From NCBI GenBank assembly GCA_030610995.1, contig JAUWQO010000002.1, positions 783-64,782 of the forward strand: a stretch of DNA of 64,000 nucleotides, in the 5' to 3' direction. This document shows positions 1,085-30,492 of this stretch, one piece after another. The DNA is from Desulfobacterales bacterium. GTDB lineage: Bacteria; Desulfobacterota; Desulfobacteria; Desulfobacterales; ETH-SRB1. Positions within the stretch are counted from its first letter, which is position 1; the number at the start of each line of letters is the position of its first letter. The position numbers and the translations under genes are program-made. The notes below the pieces were generated by a model. It saw only the letters and a program-made list of their open reading frames with translations. It had not been told where the DNA came from and did no database searches.

Positions 1085-1105
1085 GTGTTTTGAGTGCATT
1101 GATGG

Positions 1106-1200: not shown

Positions 1201-1209
1201 ATTAATTCC

Positions 1210-2178: not shown

Positions 2179-2182
2179 TTAA

Positions 2183-8393: not shown

Positions 8394-9106
8394 TGCGGTT
8401 CTCCTTTCTTAGTAAAGGTTTCTTGATCGTCTCCATCTTGTTCAGGAGCGTTTATTTTAAAGATTCCCGCTGGCAGAGGCTTATTAATCGAAGTAAATTC
8501 AAAATGTATAGAAGTATAATCACCTTCCTTTTCCTTAAAACAAATTATTTCCGGGAGCCACTGCGTTGGCCTCACTTCTATTTCGATCATGTCGATTCGT
8601 TTTGCAATCGCCTTAATTTTAGGGATTAATTTCAGATGATAGGCGCCTGAATTAGTCTTTGAAACAAGCTGGATTGAGTATTGTTTCCGAAATTCTTCAA
8701 TGGACTGGCCGATACCGAGATATTTTTTAAGAAAATTATTTCCGAGATATTTTTCTTTAGTTTTTGATATATCAGGGTAATAGATAAGAAGCAACCCGCT
8801 TTTTATAAGCACCATTACAGATGATGGGCTGATAACTTCAAATAGCATTTTACCTTCTGAATCAAAATAGATTATTCCCTCGGAATACAATGGTTCCTTG
8901 AGTAACCTGGTATTTTTGGTTTGCGCAAACTTTGCCGTCAGGGTTTTCAGACTTTCTGCCTTCTCCTTCATGTTTTTTATCACCCAGCACAATTCCGATT
9001 CCGTATTCAAAGTGGTTCCGGATGGAAAAACAGGGCACGGATTCAGAAACAGGATCAGGCCCATGAATATGAGAACAGCATATCTTTTTAAGGGGCTTTT
9101 TTTCAT
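8390..9106 (-). CDS. LolA-like lipoprotein-carrier-fold protein
   Basis: Start moved to MKKSPLK (ATGA overlap with the rSAM stop). Signal peptide; LKTLTAKFAQTKNTRLLKEPLYSEGIIYF resembles the LolA/LolA-like family seen in aryl-polyene-type clusters. Confidence 0.6.
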   Translation of the reverse strand: MKKSPLKRYAVLIFMGLILFLNPCPVFPSGTTLNTESELCWVIKNMKEKAESLKTLTAKFAQTKNTRLLKEPLYSEGIIYFDSEGKMLFEVISPSSVMVLIKSGLLLIYYPDISKTKEKYLGNNFLKKYLGIGQSIEEFRKQYSIQLVSKTNSGAYHLKLIPKIKAIAKRIDMIEIEVRPTQWLPEIICFKEKEGDYTSIHFEFTSINKPLPAGIFKINAPEQDGDDQETFTKKGEPQ

Positions 9107-10386
9107 GACATATTCTTTAGAGTCTTTTTCCATGCCTGCCGAAAGCCGTAATTCTGTACGCCGTAAAATAGACTATTTCTATTGAAAGGGAAGAGTCTTG
9201 TCAGGATTGATCGATGTCCGTACAATCTCCTGTATGCCCAGTTAAAACCTTCCTGCAATTCTTCAGGGGTCATTTTTTTAGGCCTGAATACAACATGATT
9301 CATATCGTACTTTTCCCAGTTCGTATCGATTATCCTGTTTTCTCTCTGCAAAGTTTTGTAGATTCTCGTTCCCGGAAACGGGGTCAAAACTGAAAACAAA
9401 ACCGCTTCTATATGAGTTTTTTCGATAAAACGTATCACATCGGGAAAGACAGATGAATCATCATGATCCGCACCAAAAATGAATGATCCCTGGATGCCGA
9501 TCCCGTGGTCATGAAGTATCCTAATGGCATCCTTATATTCACTTACGCGGTTGGTTGATTTTCCCATTGCCCGCAGATTTTCCTGCGACAGGGATTCAAA
9601 TCCGATAAAAAGCCCCTTGCAGCCGCTCTTCTGAGCCAGATTCAGAAGTTCTCTGTCTTTAACAACACTCAGGGAGGCTTGGCTGAACCACTTGATTTTC
9701 AGGGGGATAAGCGCCCTGAAAAGTTCTTTTGCATAAGATGGCTTTCCCACAATATTGTCATCGACGAAAAAAAGGAATCCCTTTTCCATCTGACCGATTT
9801 CGCTGATGACATTTTCTACCGGCCTTACACGGTAAGTACGGCCGTAAAAGGAGGTAACAGAACAGAATTCACAGTCAAAGGGACACCCGCGAGTCGTTTG
9901 TACAGTATTTGTAAAGAAATATCCTTTCCTGTTTAAAAGGTTTCGTTTCGGGACAGCAAGCTTGTCGAGACTGCAGAAATTCGCGGATTTGTAAAAGTGT
10001 TGCAGGTTACCGCGTTTAAAGTCTGAAAGCACAAGGGGCCAGGTTTCTTCAGCCTCGCCAATGACCACCGAGTCTGCATGGGTTTTGGCTTCATCATTCA
10101 TCATGGTGGGATGAATGCCGCCTAATACAACGGACACCCCTTTCCCCCTGAAAGCGTCGGCAATTTCATATCCCCTTTTAGCCAGAGGTGTCATGATGGA
10201 AATTGCAACGAGATCCGGCAAATCAGAGAAATCGATAGCATCCACATTTTCATCAATGATGGAAATTTTCCACTCTTTACCGGTAAGAGCAGCCAGTATC
10301 GTAAGGGCAAGATAGGGAAAACGGAAGTAAATTTGTCCCCAGAGACTGTTTTCAGGCCATTTGGGTGCGACTATCAGGAGTTTCAT
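9103..10386 (-). CDS. B12-binding-domain radical SAM enzyme (class B), copy 1
   Basis: N-terminal Rossmann-like MKLLIVAPKWPE...GVSVVLGGIHPT and a CPFDCEFC (CxxxCxxC) cluster motif. Translationally coupled on both sides. Confidence 0.85.
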   Translation of the reverse strand: MKLLIVAPKWPENSLWGQIYFRFPYLALTILAALTGKEWKISIIDENVDAIDFSDLPDLVAISIMTPLAKRGYEIADAFRGKGVSVVLGGIHPTMMNDEAKTHADSVVIGEAEETWPLVLSDFKRGNLQHFYKSANFCSLDKLAVPKRNLLNRKGYFFTNTVQTTRGCPFDCEFCSVTSFYGRTYRVRPVENVISEIGQMEKGFLFFVDDNIVGKPSYAKELFRALIPLKIKWFSQASLSVVKDRELLNLAQKSGCKGLFIGFESLSQENLRAMGKSTNRVSEYKDAIRILHDHGIGIQGSFIFGADHDDSSVFPDVIRFIEKTHIEAVLFSVLTPFPGTRIYKTLQRENRIIDTNWEKYDMNHVVFRPKKMTPEELQEGFNWAYRRLYGHRSILTRLFPFNRNSLFYGVQNYGFRQAWKKTLKNMS

Positions 10387-11282
10387 TTCGCCACCATTTC
10401 AGTGACAGGATCAGGACAATACCACTGGTCGGGATGGCGGCGGATATATTTCTCAAATATTCGGGCTGTCTTGCCAAGATTTTCTTCGATGTCATCATCC
10501 AGGTTTCCTTCCGAAGAGATGGGTATGGCTTCTTCCAATACGCCGAAGTATCTGCCGTCCGGTTGTTTTAGAACAAACGAGGGGATGAGGGCCGCCCCTG
10601 ATTTCATGGCCATAATAACAGGTCCCACCGGGAAAATTACCTTCCTGCCGAAGAAGGTAACCGGCCGTCCCCGTCCGAAAAAATCCCTGTCACCACCCAT
10701 GGCTACAATTCCATTGTTGCGGAGGTATCGCATAATTTTGATGCCGGAGAAAGGCGACCCATGATCCATCTCAATCACACTTATTCCCTTGTCTTTTCTC
10801 AGGTGATTAACCAGGGCATTTGTGGCTGTAGAGTTGTGCGCCATGGCAACCATGGCCAGAGGGTAATTTAGAAGTCTTAACATACTCCCACCGATTTCCC
10901 AGTTACCCACATGGGCCGTCAGAAAAATTGCCCCCTTTCCTTTTTCGAGAGCCTTTTTAAGAATGTCTTCTCCCTTAATATAAGCAAAAAACTTTCTGAT
11001 TTTGTTGGGCGGGAGCTGGGGTATTAAGAAGAAATCCACCATATACTGCCCGTAGTTTATGTAAGTCCGGCGGACCGTTTTTCTAATAAAAGGATCATCC
11101 ACTGGTTTATCCAGGACCATGGAAAGATTACATGCTAATCCATTTCGGTCCCTGCGGGAAAACGCATGAACCAGTAACACCACGATTTTCCCCAGCCAGT
11201 GGCAAATCATAGTGGGCAGATACCGGACTAACAGGAAGATTGCATAATAGAAAATCGGACTGTCAAGTTTATGACTTCTCAT
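10383..11282 (-). CDS. LpxL/HtrB-family lysophospholipid or lipid A-type acyltransferase
   Basis: N-terminal TM segment and the HVGNWE motif (FLTAHVGNWEIGG) typical of this family. Confidence 0.75.
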   Translation of the reverse strand: MRSHKLDSPIFYYAIFLLVRYLPTMICHWLGKIVVLLVHAFSRRDRNGLACNLSMVLDKPVDDPFIRKTVRRTYINYGQYMVDFFLIPQLPPNKIRKFFAYIKGEDILKKALEKGKGAIFLTAHVGNWEIGGSMLRLLNYPLAMVAMAHNSTATNALVNHLRKDKGISVIEMDHGSPFSGIKIMRYLRNNGIVAMGGDRDFFGRGRPVTFFGRKVIFPVGPVIMAMKSGAALIPSFVLKQPDGRYFGVLEEAIPISSEGNLDDDIEENLGKTARIFEKYIRRHPDQWYCPDPVTEMVAK

Positions 11283-12068
11283 TTATTCCTTCCGCGCCGC
11301 ATATTCTGTTTGTATTAATGCACCATACTTCAGGTCAAGATTTTTCTCTATAGCGGATTTTACAGCGGCCGTCAGTTCTTCCTTGTTGTTCTCGTCAAAT
11401 GCACACGGATCAATCGCATTACCTACTATAATCTCCATCTTTACTGGCATCAGCGCCAGGGTGCCTTTAGGCAGTGCGAAACGGCCCCCGTTTACGGTTA
11501 CCGGTAAAATGTGGACACCTGATCTAATGGCCATGGTTGCCCCACCCAGGCGGAATCTCTGCAGGCTGCCATTTTTGCTTCTTGTTCCCTCGGGGAAAAT
11601 AATAATAGAAGTTCCTTTTTTAATTTTTTGAGCGGCCGCTTCCAGGCCCATATATGCATTTTTTCGATTATGTCTGTTGATGTATATGTGTCCCATTTTT
11701 TCAAGGGCGTAGCCAAAGACAGGAACTTTTCTTATCTCCTTCTTGACAATCCATCGTATCTGAAGGGGCAGTTTCCCTATCAGAGCCCAGACGTCAAACA
11801 AACTCTGATGATTTGACATGACTATGTAATTACTGCCTTTATCTATCTTTTCCATGCCTCTGATCTTCACCCTCGTACCGGCAAGGAAAATGTTGAGCAG
11901 AGACCAGAACCTGCCTATGTAATGGACTATGTTTCCATTCCTGTCGAACGGGGAAATCATGATGACAATCAGGCCTAATACGAAAGTATTAAATATGAAG
12001 AAAATCAAGTAAAAAGGACGTGTCAAGGGATACACAACCCAGTAAAAAATGACCTTCAAGATTTCCAT
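11283..12068 (-). CDS. PlsC-family 1-acylglycerol-3-phosphate-type O-acyltransferase
   Basis: NHQSLFD (HX4D) and FPEGTRS motifs; N-terminal TM helices. Confidence 0.85.
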   Translation of the reverse strand: MEILKVIFYWVVYPLTRPFYLIFFIFNTFVLGLIVIMISPFDRNGNIVHYIGRFWSLLNIFLAGTRVKIRGMEKIDKGSNYIVMSNHQSLFDVWALIGKLPLQIRWIVKKEIRKVPVFGYALEKMGHIYINRHNRKNAYMGLEAAAQKIKKGTSIIIFPEGTRSKNGSLQRFRLGGATMAIRSGVHILPVTVNGGRFALPKGTLALMPVKMEIIVGNAIDPCAFDENNKEELTAAVKSAIEKNLDLKYGALIQTEYAARKE

Positions 12069-15416: not shown

Positions 15417-17951
15417 TTAGCAAGAATTTTCTTCCCGTCTATGGATCATAGTAAAAATTGCAGGCAGAACGACAATCGAAGCGATCAGGCATGAACTGAC
15501 GCCGATGATAGCCACGTATCCCATACTTTGCAATCCCGGGTAGTGGGCCAGGGCAATAGATCCAAAACCCGCCATAGTAGTCAGAGAGGTCAAAACAACA
15601 GCTCGACCTGTTCCACTCATTTCTTCCGGAATCTCTAAATGACCGGATTGACGGAACGTGTTGGTCAGATGAATCCCGTCATCTATGCCAATTCCGACGA
15701 TCATGGGCAGGACTATTATGTTGAAAAAATTAAAATCCAAACGAAAAATTACCATAATGCCTGTTAAAGTGGCCAGACTGATCATAAGGGGGCATACGCA
15801 GAGCAAAAGTAATTTCAGACTTCGGTAATAAATAAAAAGCACTGTGATAATACACAAACATGCCAACCACAGGGCCGATCCAAGATTGTTGATAATAAGT
15901 TTCTTTAGATCTCCTGTGAGCAGATTCGGACCGGTCAAGGTATAGCTGTCTCTATTAATTCCTTTTTCGTCTAATTCCCGGATGATCATTTCTTTAAATC
16001 GTGTTGTGTCGGCACGTGACCAGAGATCATTCGAGGGAGCGATATAGGTAATTGTTTTAAAATTATTACCCTTTCGAAAGACAAACAAATTTAAGATCTT
16101 CCCGAACTCTTTTCCCCGGAGGGATGATGGGAAAAAGAGTTTTTCTGCTGAGAAGGCCCGGGAGAGGCTTTCAAAATATTCGTCGTACAGATCCAGTTTC
16201 TCAAATCCGTTTTCTTCCAGTGCCGTATTAAATGCCTTTTTGATACGTTTTATATCAAAATCATCGGGATGCTGTCGGATGAATTTTATATTTTTCCTCT
16301 GCTGACTGGGTGAAAGCAGGTATTGGCTTATAGATTTAATGCCTGCGATAATGCCGGAGTTTTTCAGTTCCTTCAGGGTTTCATATATTGAGGTATTGAT
16401 TTCCATGACCTCTGCCTCTGATTTGCCCTGTACTATAAGAAAGGTATTGGCCATGGAACCTCCAAGCCAGCGAGTTACCTTGTCCTGCAGACGGAAGGTT
16501 TCGCTATCGGCGGGACGAAAATTCCTGAGGTTGTCATCAAAATTGATTTTAGTTCCAAGAATGGCCAGTAGGCAAACAATTATAAGTGAGGTTATGATAA
16601 TAACCCCAGGATATTTCCGGAGGTACTTCATGAGGGACATTAGCCCGAAACCGCTGATTGTAATTTTTCTTTTCGAAATTTTTTTGTCTGAGAAAAAGAC
16701 AAGAAGGCATGGAAGAACAAGAGACATGACCACAAGGCAAAATAAAATCCCTGTGCCGGTCACGATGCCAAGTTCTTTAAATCCCCTGAAGTCTGAAATA
16801 GCGATAGAATAAAAAGCGACTGCCGTGGTAATCCCGCCTATTACAATTCCCATTCCGGCTTCCTGAAAAGTTTGCTGCAGTCGGTGTGGTATGTCAAGAT
16901 CTACTTTGTCTTCACCAAAGTAACGGTTGACGATGTGGAGGGCAAAATCAATTCCCAGGCCCATCAGAACACATGAGAAAACGCAGGTAAGGATATTGAG
17001 GCGATGAAAGGCGACGTTGGCGAAGCCTAGTGTCCACAAAAGGCTTATGACCAGAGATACACCGACATAAAAAAGGACTCTCCATGTCCTGAACGACATG
17101 CCAAAGAGAAACATTATACTTAAAAAGGAAGTCAGCAGGGTAACCTTGATATCTCTTTTGGTTGTGGCTTCATCACTGACAGCGATCGGATATCCGCCAG
17201 TGTAAGATATCTTGATGTTCCCCGGCATGTCGTCAAATTGATTGGAGAATTCAGATAAAGAAATATTTTCAAGATGACGAACTTCCACCATTAATTTTTT
17301 GCTGAAGGTAATATCCTGGGGTGGCTTTTCAGGCTTAATAAAGAGGAGATAGGTTTTTCCTTCGCCGGCTTGATAATACCCTTTATATGGCCTGAGCGGC
17401 TGTTTTCCCGCGGGAACGGTTATGTTTTCCTTCAATAATTTTCTGAGTCCCAGTGGGTCGATATAAACAAGCTCTTTCGCTGCAATACCAAACGGTGTCA
17501 TCAAGAGAGTCTTATTTTCAATGACCTGTTTGTGAATTTCGTTATCGGATAATATATGGGTCAATTTCTCAAGGTCTTCTGCCTTCAAAAAGAGAGGAAA
17601 ATATTCAATGAATGTCTGAAATAAAGAGGATAGTTGTTTCTCTTCGCTTTTATATTCCACATCATGGATCAATTGACTCCCGGCAAAGTTTTCTGCCAGG
17701 ATATCAACAAAAGATTCGGATTTCGTTCGGTCATAACCCGGCGGGATCTCAACCAGAGCAATTAAAAGCGAATGACTTCCGATTTCTTCGGTAATCTCGA
17801 AGAAATTATGGACTTCTGTATTGTTTGAAGGGAGGAGAGAAAAAAAGTTAAGATCGAGCTTTAGTTGGGCAGCAAGAATAATTGCGATCAGGGTCAGGAA
17901 GGCAGTAAGGATTAAGATATGTTTGTGGAAACGATATATGATTTGATGCAA
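15417..17951 (-). CDS. MMPL/RND-superfamily predicted exporter
   Basis: 844 aa with two blocks of about six TM helices separated by large soluble loops, the architecture of the predicted exporters found in aryl-polyene-type clusters. Confidence 0.7.
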   Translation of the reverse strand: MHQIIYRFHKHILILTAFLTLIAIILAAQLKLDLNFFSLLPSNNTEVHNFFEITEEIGSHSLLIALVEIPPGYDRTKSESFVDILAENFAGSQLIHDVEYKSEEKQLSSLFQTFIEYFPLFLKAEDLEKLTHILSDNEIHKQVIENKTLLMTPFGIAAKELVYIDPLGLRKLLKENITVPAGKQPLRPYKGYYQAGEGKTYLLFIKPEKPPQDITFSKKLMVEVRHLENISLSEFSNQFDDMPGNIKISYTGGYPIAVSDEATTKRDIKVTLLTSFLSIMFLFGMSFRTWRVLFYVGVSLVISLLWTLGFANVAFHRLNILTCVFSCVLMGLGIDFALHIVNRYFGEDKVDLDIPHRLQQTFQEAGMGIVIGGITTAVAFYSIAISDFRGFKELGIVTGTGILFCLVVMSLVLPCLLVFFSDKKISKRKITISGFGLMSLMKYLRKYPGVIIITSLIIVCLLAILGTKINFDDNLRNFRPADSETFRLQDKVTRWLGGSMANTFLIVQGKSEAEVMEINTSIYETLKELKNSGIIAGIKSISQYLLSPSQQRKNIKFIRQHPDDFDIKRIKKAFNTALEENGFEKLDLYDEYFESLSRAFSAEKLFFPSSLRGKEFGKILNLFVFRKGNNFKTITYIAPSNDLWSRADTTRFKEMIIRELDEKGINRDSYTLTGPNLLTGDLKKLIINNLGSALWLACLCIITVLFIYYRSLKLLLLCVCPLMISLATLTGIMVIFRLDFNFFNIIVLPMIVGIGIDDGIHLTNTFRQSGHLEIPEEMSGTGRAVVLTSLTTMAGFGSIALAHYPGLQSMGYVAIIGVSSCLIASIVVLPAIFTMIHRREENSC

Positions 17952-18054
17952 TGGGAATAACCCCTTGAGCCAGTTTCATGTTAGCTGAAAATACTTTTTC
18001 CGTAAAGCGTTGGCAATATCGGCGTATTTTTGGCATATTCATCTGTTTTATGAG

Positions 18055-18558
18055 TCAGCCGTTCATAAACAGAGTCCATAATTTTAGGATTCCCTCTCCC
18101 AGCCCTAAAAGAAAAGCACATCCCAATATGCTTCCCCCAATCAGAAGCGGATAACCGGTGAGCTTGGAAAATTTCAAGAGTCTCGACAAAAGCACTCCGC
18201 TCCACATGCCGCAACCTTTAAGTGGCAGCGTGGTAATAGCTACAACTCCGGGTGCTCCCATGACCTGCATCCAGCGAAAGAGTTTTGATTTGCTGAGGTT
18301 CTTTCCCTTTTTTATAGTTCTTTCAGAAAACTTTCGTGCCAATAAGCTGTCAGATATTGTGCCGTACAGATGATAGAATAACGGGATCTGAAGCGTATCA
18401 AGCAGAACCACTACGGGCAACAAAAAAGAAGCCTTATATCCCAGAAATTGAGCGCTCAGGATAGCAACAGACCTGCCTCCCACTATATAGAGCGGGATAA
18501 AATATATCACAAAATGTTCTGCAAGATTGTTTTTTAAGAATATTACAAGATCGATCAT
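18055..18558 (-). CDS. small polytopic membrane protein, family uncertain
   Basis: 167 aa with about four hydrophobic helices. Same strand as, and just upstream of, the exporter gene. Confidence 0.4.
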   Translation of the reverse strand: MIDLVIFLKNNLAEHFVIYFIPLYIVGGRSVAILSAQFLGYKASFLLPVVVLLDTLQIPLFYHLYGTISDSLLARKFSERTIKKGKNLSKSKLFRWMQVMGAPGVVAITTLPLKGCGMWSGVLLSRLLKFSKLTGYPLLIGGSILGCAFLLGLGEGILKLWTLFMNG

Positions 18559-18592
18559 AAATTAAGTTATTATTTATACCTGTGAAACATGT

Positions 18593-19429
18593 TTAATGCA
18601 AATTTTTCTTTTTCAAGACGTTTGAAACAGATGTAAAGTTAAAATCATTGAGTAGGCGCCCAAGCCTTTTTTCTGTCCTTTCAACCCGTGCATCAAGAAC
18701 AAACCTTTTAACAAAAGGAAGCCTTATGCGGGGATTGTTCCTGTCAAATTCCCGGGGGTGAAGGAAGATAACAGCAGGTTGACTCTGTCTGTTCAGCTCT
18801 CGTATGGTAGAACGAATAAGATTATAAGGGAAAACCCGCAATCCCCATCCACCGCCCAAGGGGAGATTGACGAGAGGAGTGCTGCCGACCATGGGTGGAA
18901 ATTCCCATAAGCGACCTTCATCGAGTGTCAACCTGTGCGGTATTCTGGAATAATTCTGGTTGCCGATTATGGGTAGAGGTGTCATGCTCGAATCATATTC
19001 AAAACCCTCCTGTCGCAGGATATCAAGAGCCCATAGCGAATCATCTCGGATTGACCACTCAGGTGCTCTATACCCCTTAACAGGTTGGCCGGTTATCTGT
19101 GTAATTATGCTTACGGCTTTTATAAGATCCTGCCGGAACATGTCCGGTGTCATGGTATAGACCTGCCTGTGGGAGTATCCGTGTGTGGCGATTTCGTGGC
19201 CTGCTTTTTCGATTTCCTCAATTAGATCCGGATGTCTTTCAGCGACAAAACCGAGAACAAAAAATGTTGCTTGAACCTTTTTATGAGACAGAATGTCCAG
19301 TATCTTAAATGTATTTGCCGTTACCCGGCTTTCCATATCCGGCCAGCTTGCTTCAGGTATAAATTTTTCTACCCCGCAGATATGAAACCAGTCTTCCAGG
19401 TCTATGGTCAGGATATTTTCAACGGTCAT
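18593..19429 (-). CDS. NodB-type polysaccharide deacetylase (DUF3473-type)
   Basis: ILTIDLEDWFH N-terminus and a HEIATHGYSH metal-binding motif. 4-nt overlap with the ATP-grasp gene. Confidence 0.75.
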   Translation of the reverse strand: MTVENILTIDLEDWFHICGVEKFIPEASWPDMESRVTANTFKILDILSHKKVQATFFVLGFVAERHPDLIEEIEKAGHEIATHGYSHRQVYTMTPDMFRQDLIKAVSIITQITGQPVKGYRAPEWSIRDDSLWALDILRQEGFEYDSSMTPLPIIGNQNYSRIPHRLTLDEGRLWEFPPMVGSTPLVNLPLGGGWGLRVFPYNLIRSTIRELNRQSQPAVIFLHPREFDRNNPRIRLPFVKRFVLDARVERTEKRLGRLLNDFNFTSVSNVLKKKNLH

Positions 19430-20604
19430 AATTTCCTCTTTTTCAGTCGTTGTTTCATGTCCCGGTCATATATGAACGTCAGGGGCGTCAGAATTCTGCC
19501 AAGAACCGGCAAGGGATCTTTGAGGGACAAAATGTCGTAGGATGTATTTTTATTCCAAAAGTGGAAATATTCGGGCATCAAACTCGCTCGCCTGGGATTC
19601 TTTATAAAATGGAGAATATCTCCCGGTAACATCCACCGGCATTGTTTTCCTACTTCGTAATCTTCGACAGGTTTGAACTTTTCATTGCGGGACATGCGAT
19701 AAATAAGATAAGGAAAATTAACACCCGCTTCTACAGACAGGTGTAATGAGCCCCAGAATCTCGGGTTGATCTCCATCAGTTTCGGCACACCGTCACGTGG
19801 GTCAAGCTTGAATTCAACCATGGCTACGCCAAACCAGTCAAGTTTTTTCAGTAAGGACAGAGCCATATCCCGAATATCATCGTACCGGGCGCTTTCTCGC
19901 AGAGTACTTGCTCCTCCCGTTACAGGGTATTCCCTTAATCGTTTGTGCACAAAGGATGCTTTTACCTGTCCTTTCTCGTCCAGAAGAAAAGAGGCGCCAT
20001 AGCCTGTACCCTCGCGGGGAATAAGTTCCTGAATCATGGGGTAAGGGAAATGTTTATGAACCGACATGTATTGTTCTATCAATTCCACGTAGTTTTCAGG
20101 GTAAGTTATCCCCACTGCGCCGGAACTTGTTTTGGGTTTTATGACTACAGGATATGGAAGCGTATCTTTTAGCTCGTTAAGCTGGGAGATATTTTCAATA
20201 TACCAGGTTTTTGGTATGGGAATCCCCTCTTTTTCGGCTAATTGAAGAACCTTGTCCTTACGCCGGGCAAAATCAAGCTTATCAAAGGATACAATCGGAA
20301 CATACGTCAAGCTTGAAAATTCAGAATGATGTTTTGATATGAGATCCATGGTTTCATCTTCCATGGGCAGGAGCATTTGATATGACCGGCGTGACAATTT
20401 ATTGTGAAGAAATTCCAGAAACTCCGCTGGTCTAAGGAGAGGTGAGGGATATACCACTGCCTGATGACAGTATCTGGAAAAAGCGGCAGTTGCCAGACGT
20501 GTGCTTTCGCCCACTGTAACCTTGATACCCTTTTCCCCGAGAGCCCGCACCGCTGCAAGCGACTTTCTCCAATGACCATCCGTAATGAAAACTTCAGAAT
20601 TCAT
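19426..20604 (-). CDS. ATP-grasp-fold ligase
   Basis: 392 aa. YPVVIKPKTSSGAVGITY and MVEFKLDPRDGVPKLMEINPRFWGS fit an ATP-grasp core. Confidence 0.65.
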   Translation of the reverse strand: MNSEVFITDGHWRKSLAAVRALGEKGIKVTVGESTRLATAAFSRYCHQAVVYPSPLLRPAEFLEFLHNKLSRRSYQMLLPMEDETMDLISKHHSEFSSLTYVPIVSFDKLDFARRKDKVLQLAEKEGIPIPKTWYIENISQLNELKDTLPYPVVIKPKTSSGAVGITYPENYVELIEQYMSVHKHFPYPMIQELIPREGTGYGASFLLDEKGQVKASFVHKRLREYPVTGGASTLRESARYDDIRDMALSLLKKLDWFGVAMVEFKLDPRDGVPKLMEINPRFWGSLHLSVEAGVNFPYLIYRMSRNEKFKPVEDYEVGKQCRWMLPGDILHFIKNPRRASLMPEYFHFWNKNTSYDILSLKDPLPVLGRILTPLTFIYDRDMKQRLKKRKL

Positions 20605-21204: not shown

Positions 21205-22194
21205 TTACCATGTTATCAGAGCCGCACCCCAGGTGAGACCGGCCCCGAAAGCGGTAAGCAGCAGAAGATCGCCTTTTTTGAGCAGGTACCCTTTGTCCCG
21301 CATTTCACAAATGGCCAGGGGTATGGAAGCTGCGGAAATATTGCCGTAGCGGGCCACATTGGAATATACCCGTGCGGGATCGATTTTGAGTTTCTTGCCC
21401 ACCTGGTCAAGAATCCGCTGATTGGCCTGATGGGGAACCAGCCAACTCACCTCATCGATCGTCAGCCCATTGGCTGCCAGAATATTCTTACAGACCTCGA
21501 CCATCACGCGGACCGCGTGTTTGAAGACAGCGCGGCCTTCCATTTGCATGAAGTGCTGGCCTTCACCTATGTTCTCAGGCGTGAGGGGCGTTTCAGACGC
21601 TCCATGAGGAATGGTGATAAGCCCGCTCAGCCTGCCGTCGCTGCCCATCCTGAGGTCAGTGATTTTCGGCCGCACGCCATCATCCCGATTGACCACAAAA
21701 GCGGAAGCCCCGTCCCCGAAGAGAATGCAGGAGGAACGATCCTGCCAGTTTACCATGCGCGAGATGCGTTCGGACCCGCAGATAAGGATTTCCAAGGAAG
21801 GATCCTCTGTCAACAAACCGGTCGCCAGCCGCAGGCAATACAAAAAGCCAGAGCAGGCCGCCTGAAGATCGAAGCACCATGCCTTGGAAAGGCCGAGTTT
21901 GCCCTGAATAATGCAGGCTGTGGAAGAAAGTAAACGGTCCGGCGTGAAAGTGGCCAGCATGAAAATATCGATGTCTTCCGGCTCAAGACCAGCATCTTTC
22001 AGCGCTGCGGAGCAGGCGCCGACGGCCAGATCGGAATTGTGAGTGTCATCATCGGTGATATAGCGCTGCTTAATGCCAGTGCGGGTTGAGATCCATTCGT
22101 CATTGATATCAAGTGTTTTGGAAAGATCATCATTGGTAACTTTTTCCCCGGCAACGTATCGGCCGAGACCGGCAATTTTTATCGGATGTTTCAA
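21205..22194 (-). CDS. fabH: 3-oxoacyl-ACP synthase III
   Basis: Cys (AACSGFLY), His (VPHQANQRI) and Asn (YGNISAASIP) triad and the GAGLTWG C-terminus. The TTG start overlaps the stop of the plsX relic. Confidence 0.85.
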   Translation of the reverse strand: MKHPIKIAGLGRYVAGEKVTNDDLSKTLDINDEWISTRTGIKQRYITDDDTHNSDLAVGACSAALKDAGLEPEDIDIFMLATFTPDRLLSSTACIIQGKLGLSKAWCFDLQAACSGFLYCLRLATGLLTEDPSLEILICGSERISRMVNWQDRSSCILFGDGASAFVVNRDDGVRPKITDLRMGSDGRLSGLITIPHGASETPLTPENIGEGQHFMQMEGRAVFKHAVRVMVEVCKNILAANGLTIDEVSWLVPHQANQRILDQVGKKLKIDPARVYSNVARYGNISAASIPLAICEMRDKGYLLKKGDLLLLTAFGAGLTWGAALITW

Positions 22195-22657
22195 CGTGCA
22201 GGTTCTTTCTTCAAGAGAGAAGCATGAGCATTAATCTCGCCCATGAGACCTTCGGAACAGAATTTGGCGGTCGTACTGAGACCGTTGTGGAAGGACGGCG
22301 ACCCGAAAGCGCCGTGCAAAATGGTGCAAATGCCATTGACCCCGATAACATGGCACAACCGTACTGCTCATAAGCGAAACGGTTTTTCAGGTCCGTGAGC
22401 GTGCTTTTCGTGACTGCCCCGCCAAGCTTTTTTACGATACCTCTCTGAAAAACCTCATGTTTGATAATGCGCATTATGCTGCCAGCCATACTTTCCGCCA
22501 GTTTAAGAGTGACATTGCCAATGGAATCCTCACAAACGACCAAGTCCTGATTGCCCCGGAACATGTCCGTGCCTTCAACAAAGCCTTGGTAGTCAAAAAA
22601 GGATCTTAAAATGATAAAGGATAAGAACTTGCTTTTTGAAAGCGGGTGAATCCAAAA
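22191..22657 (-). pseudogene. plsX: plsX 3' portion, 5'-truncated and frameshifted
   Basis: DYQGFVEGTDMFRGNQDLVVCEDSIGNVTLK...YEQYG matches the PlsX C-terminal half. After a 1-nt frame change near 22345-22365 it continues as IGVNGICTILHGAFGS.... The N-terminal roughly 200 codons are absent. Confidence 0.7.
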
Positions 22658-23002: not shown

Positions 23003-23031
23003 TTGCACAAAAAAAGTTTCTTTGCTATAAT
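23003..23031 (+). promoter_or_regulatory. candidate sigma-70 promoter of the KR-ACP-TE-KS-CLF-rSAM-GT2 operon
   Basis: TTGCAC (23003-23008), a 17-nt spacer and TATAAT (23026-23031), about 50 nt upstream of the ATG at 23080. Confidence 0.4.
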
Positions 23032-23079: not shown

Positions 23080-23820
23080 ATGGAATTTAAGAATAAAAGA
23101 GTGATTATTACTGGAGCCACCAAAGGTTTGGGGAAAGCGATGGCTCTTGCTTTTGCCCGTGAAGGTGCCTGGGTTGTAATTAATTATTCATCTGATGATA
23201 AAAGCGCACTGGAGACAGAATCAGAAATAAAAAATATAGCGCCAAAATCCCTCCTTTTAAAGGCAGATGTTTCGTCCAGGACCGATGTCGAGAAAATGAT
23301 AAGCAATGTCCTGGAACAATGGGAATATGTGGATATTCTGGTCAACAACGCCGGAATTATCAGGGACAAATTGCTTATGTTTCTTAATGAGGAGGATTGG
23401 GATCGGGTGATTGATGTCAACCTGAAAGGCACTTATCTCTGTTCAAGGTCTATTATAAAAACGATGATAGGTAGAAAGTCCGGACGGATTATAAATATCA
23501 CGTCTCCTTCCGCACTTAAAGGCAGAATCTGCCAGACAAATTATTCGGCTTCGAAAGGCGCAATTATCTCCTTTACCAAATCTCTTTCCAGGGAGATGGC
23601 CAGGATCGGCATTACGGTAAATGCTGTTTGCCCGGGGGTCATTTCCACGGCTATGACAGAAAACCTGGATGAGAAAACGAAGAAAGAATTTTTAAATATG
23701 ATCCCAATGGGTAGATTTGGTAATCCGGAAGACATTGCCGAGGCTGTCCTTTTTTTGGCTTCAGAAAAGGCACGATATATTACTGGCCATGTGTTGGTTG
23801 TCGATGGTGGTTTGGGCTAA
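23080..23820 (+). CDS. fabG: FabG-like 3-oxoacyl-ACP reductase (SDR)
   Basis: TGATKGLG, NNAG and YSASK motifs; 246 aa. Confidence 0.85.
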   Translation: MEFKNKRVIITGATKGLGKAMALAFAREGAWVVINYSSDDKSALETESEIKNIAPKSLLLKADVSSRTDVEKMISNVLEQWEYVDILVNNAGIIRDKLLMFLNEEDWDRVIDVNLKGTYLCSRSIIKTMIGRKSGRIINITSPSALKGRICQTNYSASKGAIISFTKSLSREMARIGITVNAVCPGVISTAMTENLDEKTKKEFLNMIPMGRFGNPEDIAEAVLFLASEKARYITGHVLVVDGGLG

Positions 23821-23844: not shown

Positions 23845-24123
23845 GTGAAGGAAATCGTCAACAATTTAGAGGCATTGATCGAATTTCTCAAGAAAATGAT
23901 CATTGATACTCTTAAATTGGAAGATATCACTGTTGAAGGAATCGGGGATGATACCCCTCTTTTCAGGGAAGGACTGGGACTTGATTCCCTGGATGCCCTT
24001 GAACTTGTTGTGGCCATAGAGAAAAATTTCAATGTTATTATTGAAGATGAGAATGTTGGCAAAAAAGCTTTCGAGTCAGTCAGAGCCCTTGCTATATTCA
24101 TACAGGAAGAATATGGAGAATAG
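23845..24123 (+). CDS. dedicated acyl carrier protein (not AcpP-like)
   Basis: 92 aa, GTG start, LGLDSLDALELV phosphopantetheine site. Confidence 0.85.
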   Translation: MKEIVNNLEALIEFLKKMIIDTLKLEDITVEGIGDDTPLFREGLGLDSLDALELVVAIEKNFNVIIEDENVGKKAFESVRALAIFIQEEYGE

Positions 24124-24126
24124 CCC

Positions 24127-24549
24127 ATGCAATGGGTAGAGACAGAGGAGACAGTTCGATTTAACGAGGTAGATCAATGGGGTATGGTCTGGTACGGCCA
24201 CTACATGGCATGGTTTGAAGTTGGCAGAATGTTTTTACTGCGGCGATTCGATCTTTTGCCAAAGCAAATGGTTGAGTTAGGATATATTGCACCTGTAATC
24301 ACTTTAAAATGTGATTTTAAACACCCGGCAGCATGCGGAGACTTGATTATTATCAGGACAACGATAGTCAAGCCGGAAATTGCTGTCTTAACATTTAAAT
24401 TTGAGATATTGCTTAAAGAACAGGGCACTCTTTTGGCCCGGGGAGAGACTACGCAGGTTCTTTTAACAACCGATAATAAAATGATTTATCGACTGACAGG
24501 TGAACTTGAAAAGCGAATAAACAACCTGTTAAATTATTGTCAAAAATAG
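24127..24549 (+). CDS. hotdog-fold (4HBT/YbgC-like) thioesterase
   Basis: VRFNEVDQWGMVWYGHYMAWFEVGR N-terminal motif; 140 aa. Confidence 0.75.
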   Translation: MQWVETEETVRFNEVDQWGMVWYGHYMAWFEVGRMFLLRRFDLLPKQMVELGYIAPVITLKCDFKHPAACGDLIIIRTTIVKPEIAVLTFKFEILLKEQGTLLARGETTQVLLTTDNKMIYRLTGELEKRINNLLNYCQK

Positions 24550-24593: not shown

Positions 24594-25817
24594 ATGAATA
24601 AAGATACATCCAGGCGGGTGGCTGTAACAGGTCTTGGTATAATCACGTCCATCGGGAATTCCGTGCCCGTGTTCAGAGAAGGGCTCTTCAGCGGAAAATG
24701 TGGAATTGAGCCGATATCGCTTTTTGACACCACCGGCTTTTCATGCCATTCTGCCGGGCAGATAAAAAACATAGATTTGGAAGGCTTTTTTAATCCCCGT
24801 GAGATAAAGCGGAATTCCAGGTGTGATCTTTTGGGGCTCATAGCAGCCGACGAGGCCCTGTCAGACTTCGGACTGGATATTGCAAAATACACCAAAGAGA
24901 GAATCGGTGTTGTTCTGGGAGGTGGTGCAGGCGGTATGCTCTCCTGGGAGAAATATCGGCGTGCCTTATGGTTAAAAACCAGACCAAGACCTTCCCTTCT
25001 TCTTCCCACTGCACCCTGCACCTTGACGGATCTTGTTGCCAGTCGCTATAAACTAACCGGATTAAGAGCTACCATTTGTACAGCCTGTTCTTCCAGCGCC
25101 ACGTCGATTGGTTATGGTTTCGACTTGATTCGCTCAGGTGACCAGGATATTGTTGTCACCGGTGGAAGTGAATCTCTTTCAGAATTAACTTTTTCCGGCT
25201 TCCATTCTTTAAGACTAATGGATCCTGAGTATTGCCGTCCCTTTGACAGGCACCGGCGCGGCCTTTCATTAGGGGAGGGGGCTGCAATCCTCGTACTGGA
25301 AGATTATGAGCGTGCTGAAGATAGGAATGCAACCATTTACGCAGAAGTGCTTGGCTATGCAACAAATTCAGATGCCGTACACATTACATCCCCGGATGCC
25401 GAAGGGATGAGCCGAACAATGGTACAAGCTTTAAGAAATGCAAATATCGATGTAGATCAAGTAGACTACATCAATGCCCACGGAACGGCTACCAGGATAA
25501 ACGATAAGATGGAAACCAGGGCTATAAAGAAAGTTTTTCACGATAAGCGCACAGGAGATTTAACAATTAGTTCCACAAAATCCATGGTTGGACACTGTCT
25601 TGGCGCTGCGGGGGCAATCGAGGGAGTAACTACAGTCCTCGCTTTGCATGAGCAGGTTGTTCCACCGACGATACATTTGGAGTTTCCTGATCCGGATTGT
25701 GATCTGGATTATGTGCCTGATTATTCCAGGAAAAAGGAAATTAATTTTGCCATGAGCAACTCGTTTGCATTTGGAGGGAATAATGCATCGGTTGTATTTG
25801 CAAGAAGTAAAGTATAA
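24594..25817 (+). CDS. FabF/FabB-type beta-ketoacyl synthase (active KS)
   Basis: Cys (CTACSSS), His (INAHGTAT) and His (KSMVGHCLGAAG) triad are all present. Confidence 0.9.
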   Translation: MNKDTSRRVAVTGLGIITSIGNSVPVFREGLFSGKCGIEPISLFDTTGFSCHSAGQIKNIDLEGFFNPREIKRNSRCDLLGLIAADEALSDFGLDIAKYTKERIGVVLGGGAGGMLSWEKYRRALWLKTRPRPSLLLPTAPCTLTDLVASRYKLTGLRATICTACSSSATSIGYGFDLIRSGDQDIVVTGGSESLSELTFSGFHSLRLMDPEYCRPFDRHRRGLSLGEGAAILVLEDYERAEDRNATIYAEVLGYATNSDAVHITSPDAEGMSRTMVQALRNANIDVDQVDYINAHGTATRINDKMETRAIKKVFHDKRTGDLTISSTKSMVGHCLGAAGAIEGVTTVLALHEQVVPPTIHLEFPDPDCDLDYVPDYSRKKEINFAMSNSFAFGGNNASVVFARSKV

Positions 25818-25840: not shown

Positions 25841-27061
25841 ATGATCGAAATTGCCGTTACAGGTATAGGTGTCATCAGTCCATTGGGTATAGGTCGGGAA
25901 ACCTTCTGGGAAAGCTGCCGGAAGGCAAAGACGGGAATAAAGAAGATCACATCCTTCGACACTACATCTTTACGATCTAATATAGCCGGCTGGATTGATG
26001 ATTTTAATCCACGGCACTTTCTGCCACCGAAAAGTTATCGGCGAATGGGTAGAGTTTCAAGGATGGCAGTTGCCTCCAGCGTGGAAGCATTGCAAGACAG
26101 CGGACTTGACATGAATAGTATCGACAGGGAAAGAATTGCTGTCATCATGGGAACTTCATACGGAAGCAGTTCTCATATAGAAGATTTTTATATAAGCCTT
26201 CTCGAGGAGGGACCTCGGGGAGCCCATCCTTTTCTTTTCCCGGAAACTGTACCTAATGCCCCTGCAAGCTATATTGCCATGTTTCATGGTATAACAGGTC
26301 CCAATAATACCTTCTGCCAGAACGAACTTTCCGCGGAAAATGCCATAATGTATGCCCGGAATCTCCTGTTGCAAAATCTGGTGGACGTTGTCCTGGTGGG
26401 TGGGGCTGATGAGTTGTCAGCAATGCAGTATACCTGTTATGATGCCGTAGGCGCCCTAAACAAGGTCAGGGCAGAAAAAGGTGAAACTATCAGACCCGAA
26501 CCCGGAAGCGGTCTTGTTCTTGGGGAAGGAGCCGGAATCCTGGTTATGGAAAGAATCGATGTGGCACGTAAGCGAGATGCAAAAATATACGGAGTGCTGA
26601 AATCGGGTGTCATCAGAGGTGGTATAACAGACATTGGGCATTATGAAATTGAAGGCGAGCAGATGGCACGGGCTGTATTTCTTGCTATAGAAGATGCCGG
26701 CATGGATCCATCTGAAATTGATCAGATAGATATTTCTGCCAATTTTACCGGTGAACTTGATAGAATGGAATATAACCAGCTCAGGAAAATCTTCATAGGA
26801 CGAAACAATAATCTGGAAGTGACGCCTTTGAAATATCTTATGGGTGATTTTGGAGGCGCCGGGATCAGCAGGGCGGCGGCTATTCTTCTGAGCATTTATA
26901 ACAAACTGCCTCTTCCAACCGTAAATGCTGAAGCATTAAGAAGTGAAGCCGGAAATTTCCCGGTGTGGAATACTTCCCCGACCGGCAAAACAGATACGGC
27001 CCTGATGACAAGTTCCACGTTTGGCGGTGGAACAAGCAGCCTGATCTTTGCCAGGAAGTAA
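25841..27061 (+). CDS. KS-fold protein lacking the catalytic triad (chain-length-factor-like partner)
   Basis: By manual alignment the Cys position is Glu162 (codon 26324-26326, TFCQNELSAEN). The His motifs read ISANFTGE and KYLMGDFGGAG. Confidence 0.8.
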   Translation: MIEIAVTGIGVISPLGIGRETFWESCRKAKTGIKKITSFDTTSLRSNIAGWIDDFNPRHFLPPKSYRRMGRVSRMAVASSVEALQDSGLDMNSIDRERIAVIMGTSYGSSSHIEDFYISLLEEGPRGAHPFLFPETVPNAPASYIAMFHGITGPNNTFCQNELSAENAIMYARNLLLQNLVDVVLVGGADELSAMQYTCYDAVGALNKVRAEKGETIRPEPGSGLVLGEGAGILVMERIDVARKRDAKIYGVLKSGVIRGGITDIGHYEIEGEQMARAVFLAIEDAGMDPSEIDQIDISANFTGELDRMEYNQLRKIFIGRNNNLEVTPLKYLMGDFGGAGISRAAAILLSIYNKLPLPTVNAEALRSEAGNFPVWNTSPTGKTDTALMTSSTFGGGTSSLIFARK

Positions 27062-27070
27062 TGAATAATT

Positions 27071-28462
27071 ATGAAAGTTCTTCTTGTCTCACCTAATATA
27101 GAGTCATTACCCGATCCCGTTTTCCCACTTGGTTTAGCATACATAACCGCCGCCTTGAAACAGAACGGAACGCAGTGCCAGATTCTGGATCTCTGTTTTG
27201 TCGAAGATTATGAAGCCTCGATTGCATATACCATAAAATCTTTCCAACCCGACATTATTGGCCTGTCGTTAAGAAATATTGATAACGTTAGCTATCCGAA
27301 TTATGTCACATACCTTCCTTTTTACCATCAGGTCGTGCAGGAAATCAGGAAGCAAAGCGAGGCGATCATCGTCGCAGGGGGAAGTGCTTTTGCCCTGTTG
27401 CCTGAATTACTTCTGGAGTATCTCGGTGCAGATTTTGGCATTGCAGGTGAAGGTGAATCCTCCTTTGTCAGGCTTGTTAACGATCTAAAAGGGGGGAAGA
27501 ACATACAGGATTTTCCTGAACCAAAAATTATAAACAATCATTCCGGAATCATTGAAGATCTGGATACCCTTCCACTTCCTGACAGATCAGAATTCGACAA
27601 CGAGGCCTATTTGAAATTTGGAGGAATGGGCAATATTCAGACCAAAAGAGGTTGTCCGTTCAAGTGTATTTACTGTACCTACCCGATCATTGAAGGAAAA
27701 AAGGTAAGATTACGGAGTCCGAAACTTGTCTGTGACGAGATTGAGGACATGCTGAAATACGGGACAGACAATATCTTCTTTGTCGATAACACGTTTAATT
27801 ATCCTACCAGTCATGCCGAAGCAATCTGCCGTGAGATCATTAATCGGAAATTTCCTGTTAAATGGAGTTGTTATGCCAATCCGGGATTTATCACCCCTAA
27901 TCTTATTGAATTGATGCTCGATGCAGGTTGCACGGGAGTGGAATTTGGGAGTGATGCCGCTCATCAGACCATGCTGGTCAATCTTGGGAAAAACTTTACT
28001 GTTGATGATCTCAGGAGTGCCTCGGACATTTGCAGGCAGAAGGGAATGTCATTCTGTCATTCCCTTCTTTTGGGAGGACCGGGCGAGACAATGGAAAGTG
28101 TACATCAAACAGTGAATGCCATACTTGAAATGTCTCCCACTGCCGCTATCTGTATGATTGGTATCAGGGTATTTCCGGGTACCCGGTTATCTTCCATAGC
28201 AGTGGAAGAAGGGACCATTCCGCATGATGCGGATTTTTTACAACCCGTGTTTTACCTATCCCCTGCCATAGAAAATGAAATTCTGCCATTCATCGAACAA
28301 TTTTCAAAAGAAAACCGGAACTGGATATTTCCCGGCATGAACATTAATATGAATGCAAATCTGCAAAGGAAACTGCGTCGTTTCGGAATCAAGGGGCCTT
28401 TGTGGGAGTACATGAAGACCGGAAAGAGGTTGAGGAGTATGCGTGAAAATCTGGGCAAATAA
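27071..28462 (+). CDS. B12-binding-domain radical SAM enzyme (class B), copy 2
   Basis: MKVLLVSPNIESLPDPVFPLGLAYI...AIIVAGGSAF Rossmann-like N-terminus and a CPFKCIYC cluster motif. Confidence 0.85.
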   Translation: MKVLLVSPNIESLPDPVFPLGLAYITAALKQNGTQCQILDLCFVEDYEASIAYTIKSFQPDIIGLSLRNIDNVSYPNYVTYLPFYHQVVQEIRKQSEAIIVAGGSAFALLPELLLEYLGADFGIAGEGESSFVRLVNDLKGGKNIQDFPEPKIINNHSGIIEDLDTLPLPDRSEFDNEAYLKFGGMGNIQTKRGCPFKCIYCTYPIIEGKKVRLRSPKLVCDEIEDMLKYGTDNIFFVDNTFNYPTSHAEAICREIINRKFPVKWSCYANPGFITPNLIELMLDAGCTGVEFGSDAAHQTMLVNLGKNFTVDDLRSASDICRQKGMSFCHSLLLGGPGETMESVHQTVNAILEMSPTAAICMIGIRVFPGTRLSSIAVEEGTIPHDADFLQPVFYLSPAIENEILPFIEQFSKENRNWIFPGMNINMNANLQRKLRRFGIKGPLWEYMKTGKRLRSMRENLGK

Positions 28463-28549: not shown

Positions 28550-29596
28550 ATGTCAAAAATCTGCGTAGTCATTCCAGCATATAATGCAACTCAAACTATA
28601 AGGGATGTGGTCAAGGGATCGTTACAATATGTTTCTGATGTAATTGTTGCAGATGATGGTTCAACGGACAATACGGCTGATATTGCTGCCGAAGCAGGCG
28701 CCAGGGTCATGTTGATCGAGAAGAATTTTGGAAAAGGAAATGCATTGAAGGCGCTTTTCCGGAAGGCTATCGATGAAGGATATGATGCCGTAATAAGTGT
28801 GGATGCCGATGGGCAGCATGATCCTGCTGATATCCCCCGTTTCATTGAATCGCATTATAACTGTCCTGAATCCGTTATTGTTGGTTCCAGGATGCATCAC
28901 ATACATAAGATCCCGAGAGGGCGGTATAATTCGATGCATGTCGCGCGGTTCTATGTCTCTCTCGGTGCAAATCAATTCATAGAGGATACGCAGTGTGGTT
29001 TCAGACTCTATCCTCTCTCAACAGTCAAAAACATTCTTCTGACAACCGATCGATATGTGACGGAAACGGAATTTTTGTTAAAAGCGGGAGATTCGGGCGC
29101 CAAAATACGATCTCTTGAAATCGAAACGATATACAGCAATAATGTAAGCTACTTCAAACCTGTAACAGATATTGTTGCCATATCTTTCTATGTTATTTCT
29201 TATCTTCCCACCAAATGGTTTTTAGAGGCAATATCATCTGACAGGCCGAACACCTATTCACGGAACAATTTTCGAGATCTCATCGGCAAAAACAAAATAT
29301 TAGATATGGCCTTTGAGATATTTTCCGTGCTCACTGTTTTTCTTGTTCCTCCCTTTTTCATGATCCTGCGGCTTTTATTATCTCCTTTTATTAAAAATAA
29401 TTTTGCTTCAACCCGAAAGCTTCACTGCGGTTTCTTTAGAATTCTGATTACGACGTATCTGATTCCGCTCCTCTTGATCATTGCACCTGTAGAGAAGTTT
29501 TTAAACACCTCCGGCGTCAAGGTAAAGCTTGTGAACAGGTTTCTTAAGTATGTCGTTCCGTCTTTTCCGGGGGGACAGGGAAAGTATATACTGTAA
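28550..29596 (+). CDS. family 2 glycosyltransferase with C-terminal membrane domain
   Basis: VVIPAYNA...VADDGSTDNT...SVDADGQHD GT-A motifs, followed by about four TM helices. Confidence 0.8.
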   Translation: MSKICVVIPAYNATQTIRDVVKGSLQYVSDVIVADDGSTDNTADIAAEAGARVMLIEKNFGKGNALKALFRKAIDEGYDAVISVDADGQHDPADIPRFIESHYNCPESVIVGSRMHHIHKIPRGRYNSMHVARFYVSLGANQFIEDTQCGFRLYPLSTVKNILLTTDRYVTETEFLLKAGDSGAKIRSLEIETIYSNNVSYFKPVTDIVAISFYVISYLPTKWFLEAISSDRPNTYSRNNFRDLIGKNKILDMAFEIFSVLTVFLVPPFFMILRLLLSPFIKNNFASTRKLHCGFFRILITTYLIPLLLIIAPVEKFLNTSGVKVKLVNRFLKYVVPSFPGGQGKYIL

Positions 29597-30200: not shown

Positions 30201-30492
30201 ATTATGTTCCCTCCTTCTCTCAAATATATAATTGTTCTAAACTTACTTTCTCTCGTTGAGGCATGAAAAAATACATCCCGTTACTCATAGCAAAAATTTT
30301 CATAAAGGGCAAGAATTTATTTTCTATGGCAAGTGATGGATAAGAACGGGCCCATAAATAAGTAACCAAATCATGCTTAAAAGATAGTTGTTTACTTATT
30401 TATGGATGTCCCGCATTCCCCGCAAAAGTAAAATCTGTGGCGGACATGGGTGGGAAATGAGAAGGCCGAATATCTCATGGGGTATCGATGAA

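Follow-up and report, generated by a model that had tools for sequence, protein, structure and literature searches.

Cluster I of the anammox bacteria (Kuenenia KustE3603-3608), which has been proposed to hold the genes for ladderane synthesis, consists of amxACP, amxFabZ, a phytoene dehydrogenase (PDH) gene, amxFabF2, amxFabFmut and a gene for a cobalamin (B12)-binding radical S-adenosylmethionine (SAM) protein, and recent work has shown that the two FabF homologues in it assemble into a heterodimer like that of a ketosynthase (KS) and a chain-length factor (CLF). Rattray (2009) found that the Kuenenia fatty-acid clusters with SAM-radical genes are syntenic to clusters in Desulfotalea, Geobacter and Pelobacter (PMC2649909), and antiSMASH clusters of the "ladderane" type have been reported from Desulfobacterota and many other phyla. 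A cluster of this class (PMC2649909, PMC9902471) is present in a 64,000-nucleotide stretch of a Desulfobacterales bacterium (assembly GCA_030610995.1, contig JAUWQO010000002.1, positions 783 to 64,782; hereafter, the window). It encodes two cobalamin-binding (class-B) radical SAM proteins, copy 1 and copy 2, and the second of these, which directly follows a CLF-like gene, is the subject here. Judged by its profile score, copy 2 is a member of a named, biochemically uncharacterised family, TIGR04072, and it would carry out an in-line radical modification, most likely a C-methylation, of an acyl carrier protein (ACP)-tethered chain; a probability of roughly 0.55 is given to this reading.

By the published description of Cluster I, the window's cluster resembles it in having a dedicated ACP, a hotdog-fold protein, an active KS together with one whose triad is dead, and a terminal cobalamin radical SAM gene. 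The differences are several. The host is of the Desulfobacterota type and not an anammox planctomycete; the PDH-like gene is absent, no phytoene-dehydrogenase-like, amine-oxidase or PDH domain being found in the cluster open reading frames (ORFs) scanned; a 4HBT thioesterase, and not FabZ, supplies the hotdog fold; and the sole dehydratase is FabA-like and lies 17 kb away instead of beside the ACP gene. Moreover, the dead KS has Glu/Ser/Asp, whereas amxFabFmut is reported to have Val/Thr plus Glu/Cys/Asn, and the cluster carries anchoring and export genes of the aryl-polyene (APE) type.

The APE and flexirubin clusters provide the other comparison. They share with the window an ApeE/F-like ACP, a KS-CLF pair, a FabG/FlxB-like ketoreductase, a FabA/ApeI-like dehydratase and a thioesterase, as well as an LpxL-type acyltransferase, a GT2 glycosyltransferase, a LolA-like protein and an MMPL exporter. 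Unlike them, the window has no adenylating ApeH-type or aryl-starter gene among the cluster ORFs scanned (no AMP-binding or adenylating domain was found between 6282 and 29596) and has two class-B radical SAM genes; canonical APE clusters are not known to contain genes of this kind. The cluster at 6282-29596 (about 23 kb) is thus described as an APE scaffold for biosynthesis, anchoring and export to which radical SAM enzymes have been added, that is, as "ladderane-type".

Family assignment and active site of copy 2

The sequence-only reading of this DNA had placed a 463-residue B12-radical SAM ORF with the motif CPFKCIYC directly after a CLF-like gene, and this is borne out by the ORF itself and by Pfam. 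The CLF-like gene ends with TAA at 27059-27061 and, after a gap of 9 nt, copy 2 begins with the ATG at 27071; a Shine-Dalgarno-like AGGAAG, still within the CLF gene near its 3' end, precedes this ATG by 12 nt. The N-terminus of the protein reads MKVLLVSPNIESLPDPVFPLGLAYI. A B12-binding domain is followed by a Radical_SAM domain (PF04055, residues 191-349, 72.2 bits). The gene is considered real because more than 6000 proteins match it at E<=1e-20, the top one being 95% identical. Those homologues that are named come from Desulfobacterales or "Deltaproteobacteria" metagenome-assembled genomes (MAGs), and the nearest genome records, at 90-95% identity, are Desulfobacteraceae and Syntrophaceae MAGs; at E<=1e-30, the relatives amount to 2546 cluster representatives (50% identity).

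Copy 2 scores 405.4 bits against the NCBIfam model TIGR04072 (rSAM_ladder_B12, "lipid biosynthesis B12-binding/radical SAM protein"), an equivalog with a curated cut-off of 360 bits, and the match runs from residue 2 to residue 447 over model positions 1-440 of 443. A six-frame search of the window's genome (3.02 Mb, 200 contigs, 93% complete) returned the same locus, at 405.2 bits, as the sole match above the cut-off, so that this genome has exactly one TIGR04072 member, along with several other class-B paralogues. The traits that go with the family, namely a score above the cut-off, B12-binding and radical SAM domains and a neighbourhood with ACP and KS genes, are all present.

Other family names were tried and rejected: BzaD (TIGR04385, 222.1 bits against a cut-off of 450), TsrM (TIGR04428, the tryptophan 2-C-methyltransferase, 198.6 against 500), PhpK (147 against 600), AprD4 (107 against 500), HpnJ (101 against 578), HpnR (likewise far under its cut-off) and BchE (78 against 481). 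The sequence-only reading had named the clustering of copy 2 with a well-characterised non-lipid family, together with an adjacency to the KS/CLF pair that was not conserved, as what would speak against it; copy 2 lies below the cut-off of each of the families just listed, and the adjacency is conserved (see below), so the reading was not refuted by this check.

A sample of 301 genomes from the window's phylum includes 55 with TIGR04072 above the cut-off, and the scores are bimodal: a "core" group at 565-672 bits is set apart from a group at 360-426 bits, and the window protein belongs to the lower one. A literature search for a characterised cobalamin radical SAM enzyme linked to a KS-CLF pair found none.

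Information on the active site comes mainly from a comparison with TsrM. The latter is the top match of copy 2 among sequences in the PDB (6wte, 159.7 bits) and the only entry to be aligned over the B12 domain too. An AlphaFold2 model of copy 2 made with 43 sequences has a mean predicted local distance difference test score (pLDDT) of 83 and a predicted template-modelling score (pTM) of 0.85, and in a Foldseek search with this model four TsrM chains come first (template-modelling score on the query, TMq, 0.82-0.85; E about 1e-32), ahead of AprD4, MgmA, OxsB, CysS and TokK. In TsrM, Arg69 lies in the loop after strand 3, where it shields the lower face of the cobalamin (PMC8992657, PMC13331322). 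The HMMER alignment pairs this residue with Arg68 of copy 2, which in the model comes just after strand 3 (residues 62-66). Among 186 relatives (the proteins of the loci described below together with 150 representatives from clustering at 50%), the arginine of the RNxD motif is kept in 184, and the three cysteines of the CxxxCxxC motif are kept in all. A second residue of TsrM, Glu273, is a ligand of the unique iron and blocks radical SAM cleavage. Its position is occupied by Thr241 in copy 2 and mostly by V/I/A/T/L in the relatives, with Glu in only 7 of the 186; normal radical initiation is therefore possible. The combination suggests that the cobalamin would be held as it is in TsrM, while the [4Fe-4S] cluster would be free for SAM and for the generation of a 5'-deoxyadenosyl radical, the latter being the way of ordinary class-B methylases.

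Could copy 2 nevertheless work as TsrM does (6WTE/6WTF), the methyl group of methylcob(III)alamin being attacked by a nucleophilic sp2 carbon without any 5'-deoxyadenosyl radical? The carbon in question might be that of the enol(ate) of a beta-ketoacyl-ACP or a polyene or aryl carbon. Besides the sequence and structure matches, the arginine speaks for such a reaction, since it favours heterolytic methyl transfer in TsrM (PMC8992657) and is near-invariant here. The two proteins are, however, only 23-24% identical, copy 2 is about 100 residues shorter, TsrM belongs to thiopeptide and not to lipid biosynthesis, and its model is far from being satisfied by copy 2. The iron-ligating Glu is gone as well; about 96% of the relatives have a small or hydrophobic residue at its position. 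BzaD, the next-best family, also methylates an aromatic carbon, which again fits an sp2 target. Taken together, a non-radical methylation of this kind is regarded as improbable.

In the C-terminal region, the helix formed by residues 426-456 (28346-28438) is modelled with low confidence (pLDDT <50). Invariant residues are found in it or just before it: W418, F420, P421, G422, N426, L435, R436, G439, G442, P443, W445 and E446. This helix may serve in docking or in association with a membrane.

The cluster and its counterparts in relatives

In the co-directional row FabG-ACP-thioesterase-KS-CLF-radical SAM-GT2, copy 2 takes the sixth place and is the last biosynthetic enzyme (Table 1). A promoter-like site precedes FabG. 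No convincing terminator was found in a scan from FabG to GT2; two terminator-like plus-strand hairpins fall within the radical SAM ORF, and their number is under that expected from shuffled sequence. The KS/CLF pair proposed by the sequence-only reading is confirmed, the upstream protein having Glu/Ser/Asp where the KS has the triad Cys-His-His. The assignment of the pair as specific orthologues of chains B and C of the two-KS heteromer in PDB 9s5h was rejected because the scores tie with those of ordinary FabF (9s5h against FabF, 329.7 and 326 bits for the KS and 174.9 and 181 bits for the CLF). The ACP has as its top PDB match 9ls6 (66.9 bits; the next has 29 bits), which is the aryl-polyene ACP of Acinetobacter baumannii (PMC12624758).

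Table 1. Positions of the features discussed (window coordinates unless a locus is named).
Feature	Position	Strand	Remarks
Copy 2, cobalamin-binding radical SAM protein, 463 aa	27071-28462	+	ORF reading, Pfam, NCBIfam TIGR04072
B12-binding Rossmann domain of copy 2	27101-27475	+	residues 11-135; Pfam PF02310, 65.8 bits
Arg68 codon	27272-27274	+	loop after strand 3, RNxD motif, within B12-binding domain
CPFKCIYC, CxxxCxxC [4Fe-4S] motif	27653-27676	+	residues 195-202 (C195, C199, C202); direct reading
Thr241 codon	27791-27793	+	aligned with TsrM Glu273
AGGAAG, Shine-Dalgarno-like	27053-27058	+	
Promoter-like site	23004-23031		10/12 matches, with TG
FabG-type ketoreductase	23080-23820	+	opens the co-directional operon
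Dedicated ACP, aryl-polyene (ApeE/F)-like	23845-24123	+	Pfam PP-binding; PDB match
4HBT/YbgC-type hotdog thioesterase	24127-24549	+	
Active FabF-type ketosynthase	24594-25817	+	Cys-His-His triad
CLF-type KS-fold protein	25841-27061	+	directly upstream of copy 2
GT2 glycosyltransferase	28550-29596	+	hydrophobic C-terminal half
FabA/ApeI-like dehydratase	6282-6740	-	
FabD-like acyltransferase	6737-7660	-	
TPR protein	7680-8393	-	
LolA-like lipid carrier	8390-9133	-	
Copy 1, class-B radical SAM protein, 427 aa	9103-10386	-	different unnamed subfamily; between LolA-like and LpxL-like genes
LpxL-type acyltransferase	10383-11282	-	
PlsC-type acyltransferase	11283-12068	-	
MMPL/RND exporter	15417-17951	-	
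Small export protein	18055-18558	-	
Polysaccharide deacetylase	18593-19429	-	
ATP-grasp	19426-20604	-	
TIGR04072-passing protein outside lipid clusters	L078 9310-10728		
TIGR04072-passing protein outside lipid clusters	L079 9350-10777		
TIGR04072-passing protein outside lipid clusters	L080 4387-5811		

The rest of the cluster lies on the other strand. Its block from the exporter to the ATP-grasp gene (15417-20604) is syntenic with the FabG-to-radical SAM operon in relatives, and the same upstream stretch also contains plus-strand genes for a methyltransferase, a phosphodiesterase and an SRPBCC protein. Between the divergent halves of the cluster (21205-22564, minus strand) are an intact-looking fabH and a fragment of plsX (FA_synthesis, profile positions 217-289 only). 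This insert is specific to the window's genome, since three loci that are 90-95% identical (L009-L011) have no fabH between ATP-grasp and FabG.

For the comparison with relatives, about 20 kb was fetched around each of 40 hits above the cut-off, the proteins of the window's cluster were mapped on, and a tree was built. The tree has well-supported clades, each with its own local gene order. With X standing for the TIGR04072 gene, clade (i), which is the high-scoring group, has hotdog-KS-rSAM1-like-X-(third radical SAM)-GT2-LpxL-ACP-KS-CLF; clade (ii) has ACP-KS-X-KS-KS-hotdog; clade (iii) has hotdog-rSAM1-rSAM1-X-FabG-KS-CLF; and clade (iv), that of the window, has KS-CLF-X. The window protein therefore differs from the core of the family both in its score group and in its synteny. 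In clade (iv), the CLF gene is directly upstream of the radical SAM gene in all nine loci examined, with an overlap of 4 nt in two of them, over a range of identity from 95% down to 49% (L009-L012, 71-95%; L082-L084, 65-68%; L070 and L071, 49-50%). The position of GT2 varies: in L070, L071 and L084 it precedes the KS, and in L082 and L083 the pair has no GT2 beside it. In a complete Desulfobacterales MAG (L082; CP070789.1, 2517324-2538706), the CLF (63% identity) and radical SAM (68%) genes overlap by 4 nt (8748-11383 of the locus), and no FabG, ACP, thioesterase or active KS was found within 10 kb of them. This observation suggests that the CLF and radical SAM genes may form a detachable functional unit. 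In another relative of this clade (L084, 65% identity), the MMPL and small-export genes of an otherwise syntenic cluster are separated by a radical SAM gene of the SPASM type, which is non-B12 (886-2256, minus strand); the complement of radical SAM genes in this type of cluster varies by genome.

Across the phylum, TIGR04072 genes sit in clusters with ACP, KS, LpxL, GT2, MMPL and LolA genes. Within 10 kb of the TIGR04072 gene, KS/CLF genes are found in 36 of 47 loci, ACP genes in 36 and at least two class-B radical SAM genes in 29. The presence of two such genes, which the sequence-only reading had called unusual, is so only in relation to canonical APE clusters, to which they are foreign; in the "ladderane-type" class, it is normal.

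A tblastn search of the window with copy 2 finds one paralogue, copy 1. There is also a weak match to the C-terminal part of copy 2 at 30265-30393 on the minus strand (35% over 43 aa, E 0.09), in a zone where a fragment of a MiaB/MtaB-type gene had been placed earlier. Copy 1 has both of the Pfam domains seen in copy 2 and, in addition, a weak DUF4070 match at its tail, and it is this shared two-domain architecture, within one cluster, that might suggest redundant duplicates catalysing the same reaction. That idea is effectively refuted. The BLASTP alignment (E 1e-23) covers 266 aa of the radical SAM core, at only 28% identity, and leaves the B12 domains unaligned; copy 1 reaches no NCBIfam cut-off, its top score being BchE (127 against 481) and its TIGR04072 score 78 bits; it lacks the arginine at the RNxD position; and, when it is used to root the tree as an outgroup, its branch exceeds 5 substitutions per site. 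A recent duplication is ruled out on the same grounds, in agreement with the sequence-only reading, which had taken the diverged copies to have separate functions. Each copy has, moreover, its own orthologue of about 50% identity in a genome from another family of the phylum (G074), where the two lie about 9 kb apart on one contig (G074:C54). By contrast, a 100% complete genome of the same genus as the window's (G078) has neither, and its best TIGR04072 match (211 bits) is another paralogue. The cluster is thus variably present within the genus, and since one genome lacks both copies while the other has orthologues of both, the two radical SAM genes are long-standing and distinct parts of a single cluster, which comes and goes as a unit. 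Copy 1 itself appears, from these sequence comparisons, to be a separate, non-redundant class-B enzyme that would act at a different step.

Possible reactions on the acyl chain

In the proposed mechanism, copy 2 would act in line on a chain that comes from the KS-CLF pair and is tethered to the pantetheine of the ACP. SAM, bound at the iron that is left open in the [4Fe-4S] cluster, would give rise to the 5'-deoxyadenosyl radical, which would abstract a hydrogen from the substrate. Arg68 would keep the cobalamin free of a lower ligand, and from this cobalamin a methyl group would pass to the growing chain. The modified acyl chain might then be anchored via the LpxL- and PlsC-type acyltransferases and GT2, and exported via the MMPL and LolA-like proteins.

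C-methylation is favoured because the CLF and radical SAM genes are tightly coupled, the nearest characterised relatives are methyltransferases, methylation is the commonest class-B chemistry, and CysS and TokK provide a precedent. The latter two, class-B methylases that were crystallised with pantetheinylated substrates, have the same fold class as copy 2 (Foldseek matches 9n1b-d and 7kdx/7kdy for CysS and TokK/ThnK) and show that class-B enzymes can methylate pantetheinylated intermediates. They are, however, distant (14-17% identity, TMq 0.63-0.69) and larger, with extra domains, and TokK has a Trp instead of an Arg under the cobalt (PMC13331322).

Several observations weigh against this reading. 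Class-B chemistry is not confined to methylation, as OxsB, BchE, the glycerol dialkyl glycerol tetraether (GDGT) ring synthase and ThnL illustrate. The conserved arginine has so far been documented only in the non-radical TsrM, which makes it uncertain what the residue means in copy 2. In a sister subclade of about 40% identity (L078-L080, 361-367 bits), the proteins pass the TIGR04072 cut-off and have no ACP/KS context; the model thus also admits paralogues that are probably not lipid enzymes, and the substrate of the whole family is not fixed by context. Finally, for the reaction of TIGR04072 members the reviews up to 2026 give proposals only (PMC13459092; on the cluster class and its product, see also PMC9902471 and PMC10139942).

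The same subclade is one reason for supposing that the substrate of copy 2 is not an acyl chain but a sugar or head group handled by GT2, or even an unrelated metabolite, the adjacency to the CLF gene reflecting co-regulation alone. The start of GT2 only 87 nt downstream is compatible with this, as is the rank of AprD4, a sugar-modifying enzyme, as the second-best structural match. It is nonetheless the CLF gene that is kept upstream in every locus of clade (iv) while GT2 shifts its position, and the pair found on its own in the complete MAG is that of the CLF and radical SAM genes. A non-acyl substrate is accordingly seen as a long shot.

Another possibility is that copy 2 is not a methylase at all and instead forms C-C bonds, closes rings or rearranges an unsaturated ACP-bound chain. 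A role of this kind, in cyclobutane formation, has been proposed for the B12-radical SAM protein of anammox Cluster I and is analogous to that of the B12-radical SAM GDGT ring synthases; the TIGR04072 model takes its name from ladderane clusters; and the order of genes in Cluster I, amxACP-amxFabZ-PDH-FabF2-FabFmut-B12 radical SAM, parallels the order ACP-hotdog-KS-CLF-radical SAM. No enoyl reductase was seen among the cluster ORFs scanned and a dehydratase is present, which makes unsaturated intermediates plausible, and there are class-B enzymes that do not methylate (10.1101/2025.10.20.683597). Set against this are the absence of a phytoene-dehydrogenase-like gene already mentioned, the fact that Desulfotalea, a non-anammox carrier, makes no ladderanes (PMC2649909), and the nature of the closest characterised enzymes by sequence and fold, BzaD and TsrM, which are methyltransferases. 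The likeness to the anammox enzyme is, furthermore, one of gene order. A cyclase or related enzyme is thus an unlikely candidate, though not a negligible one, and an in-line C-methylation is preferred.

A broader idea, tentative and on the doubtful side, is that TIGR04072 enzymes are obligate in-line partners of KS-CLF pairs with a hybrid cofactor arrangement, an Arg-shielded cobalamin next to an unblocked cluster, and that they iteratively alkylate or ring-close an ACP-tethered enoyl or polyenoyl chain during elongation. The obligate partnership is suggested by the CLF and radical SAM genes staying together when they are detached from the rest of the cluster.

Significance for the TIGR04072 family

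Much of this is known in outline: the family has a curated NCBIfam model and a name, the cluster class has been noticed since 2009 and is flagged by antiSMASH, and the gene itself is a further example of that class and would not surprise a specialist. What is new is modest and consists of the clade-specific coupling of CLF and radical SAM genes, the bimodal scores of the family, and an active-site pattern in which the Arg is present and the Glu absent.

The homologue from anammox bacteria has proved resistant to expression, and no genetics is available in these organisms (PMC10139942). Members of TIGR04072 outside the anammox bacteria are alternative entry points to the chemistry of the family, with testable handles in the conserved CLF-radical SAM coupling, the near-invariant Arg beneath the cobalamin and the lack of the Glu that would block the iron. 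If the partnership with KS-CLF pairs were true, a reaction solved in a non-anammox carrier would reveal the homologous chemistry in the anammox bacteria and would open ladderane biosynthesis to experiment.

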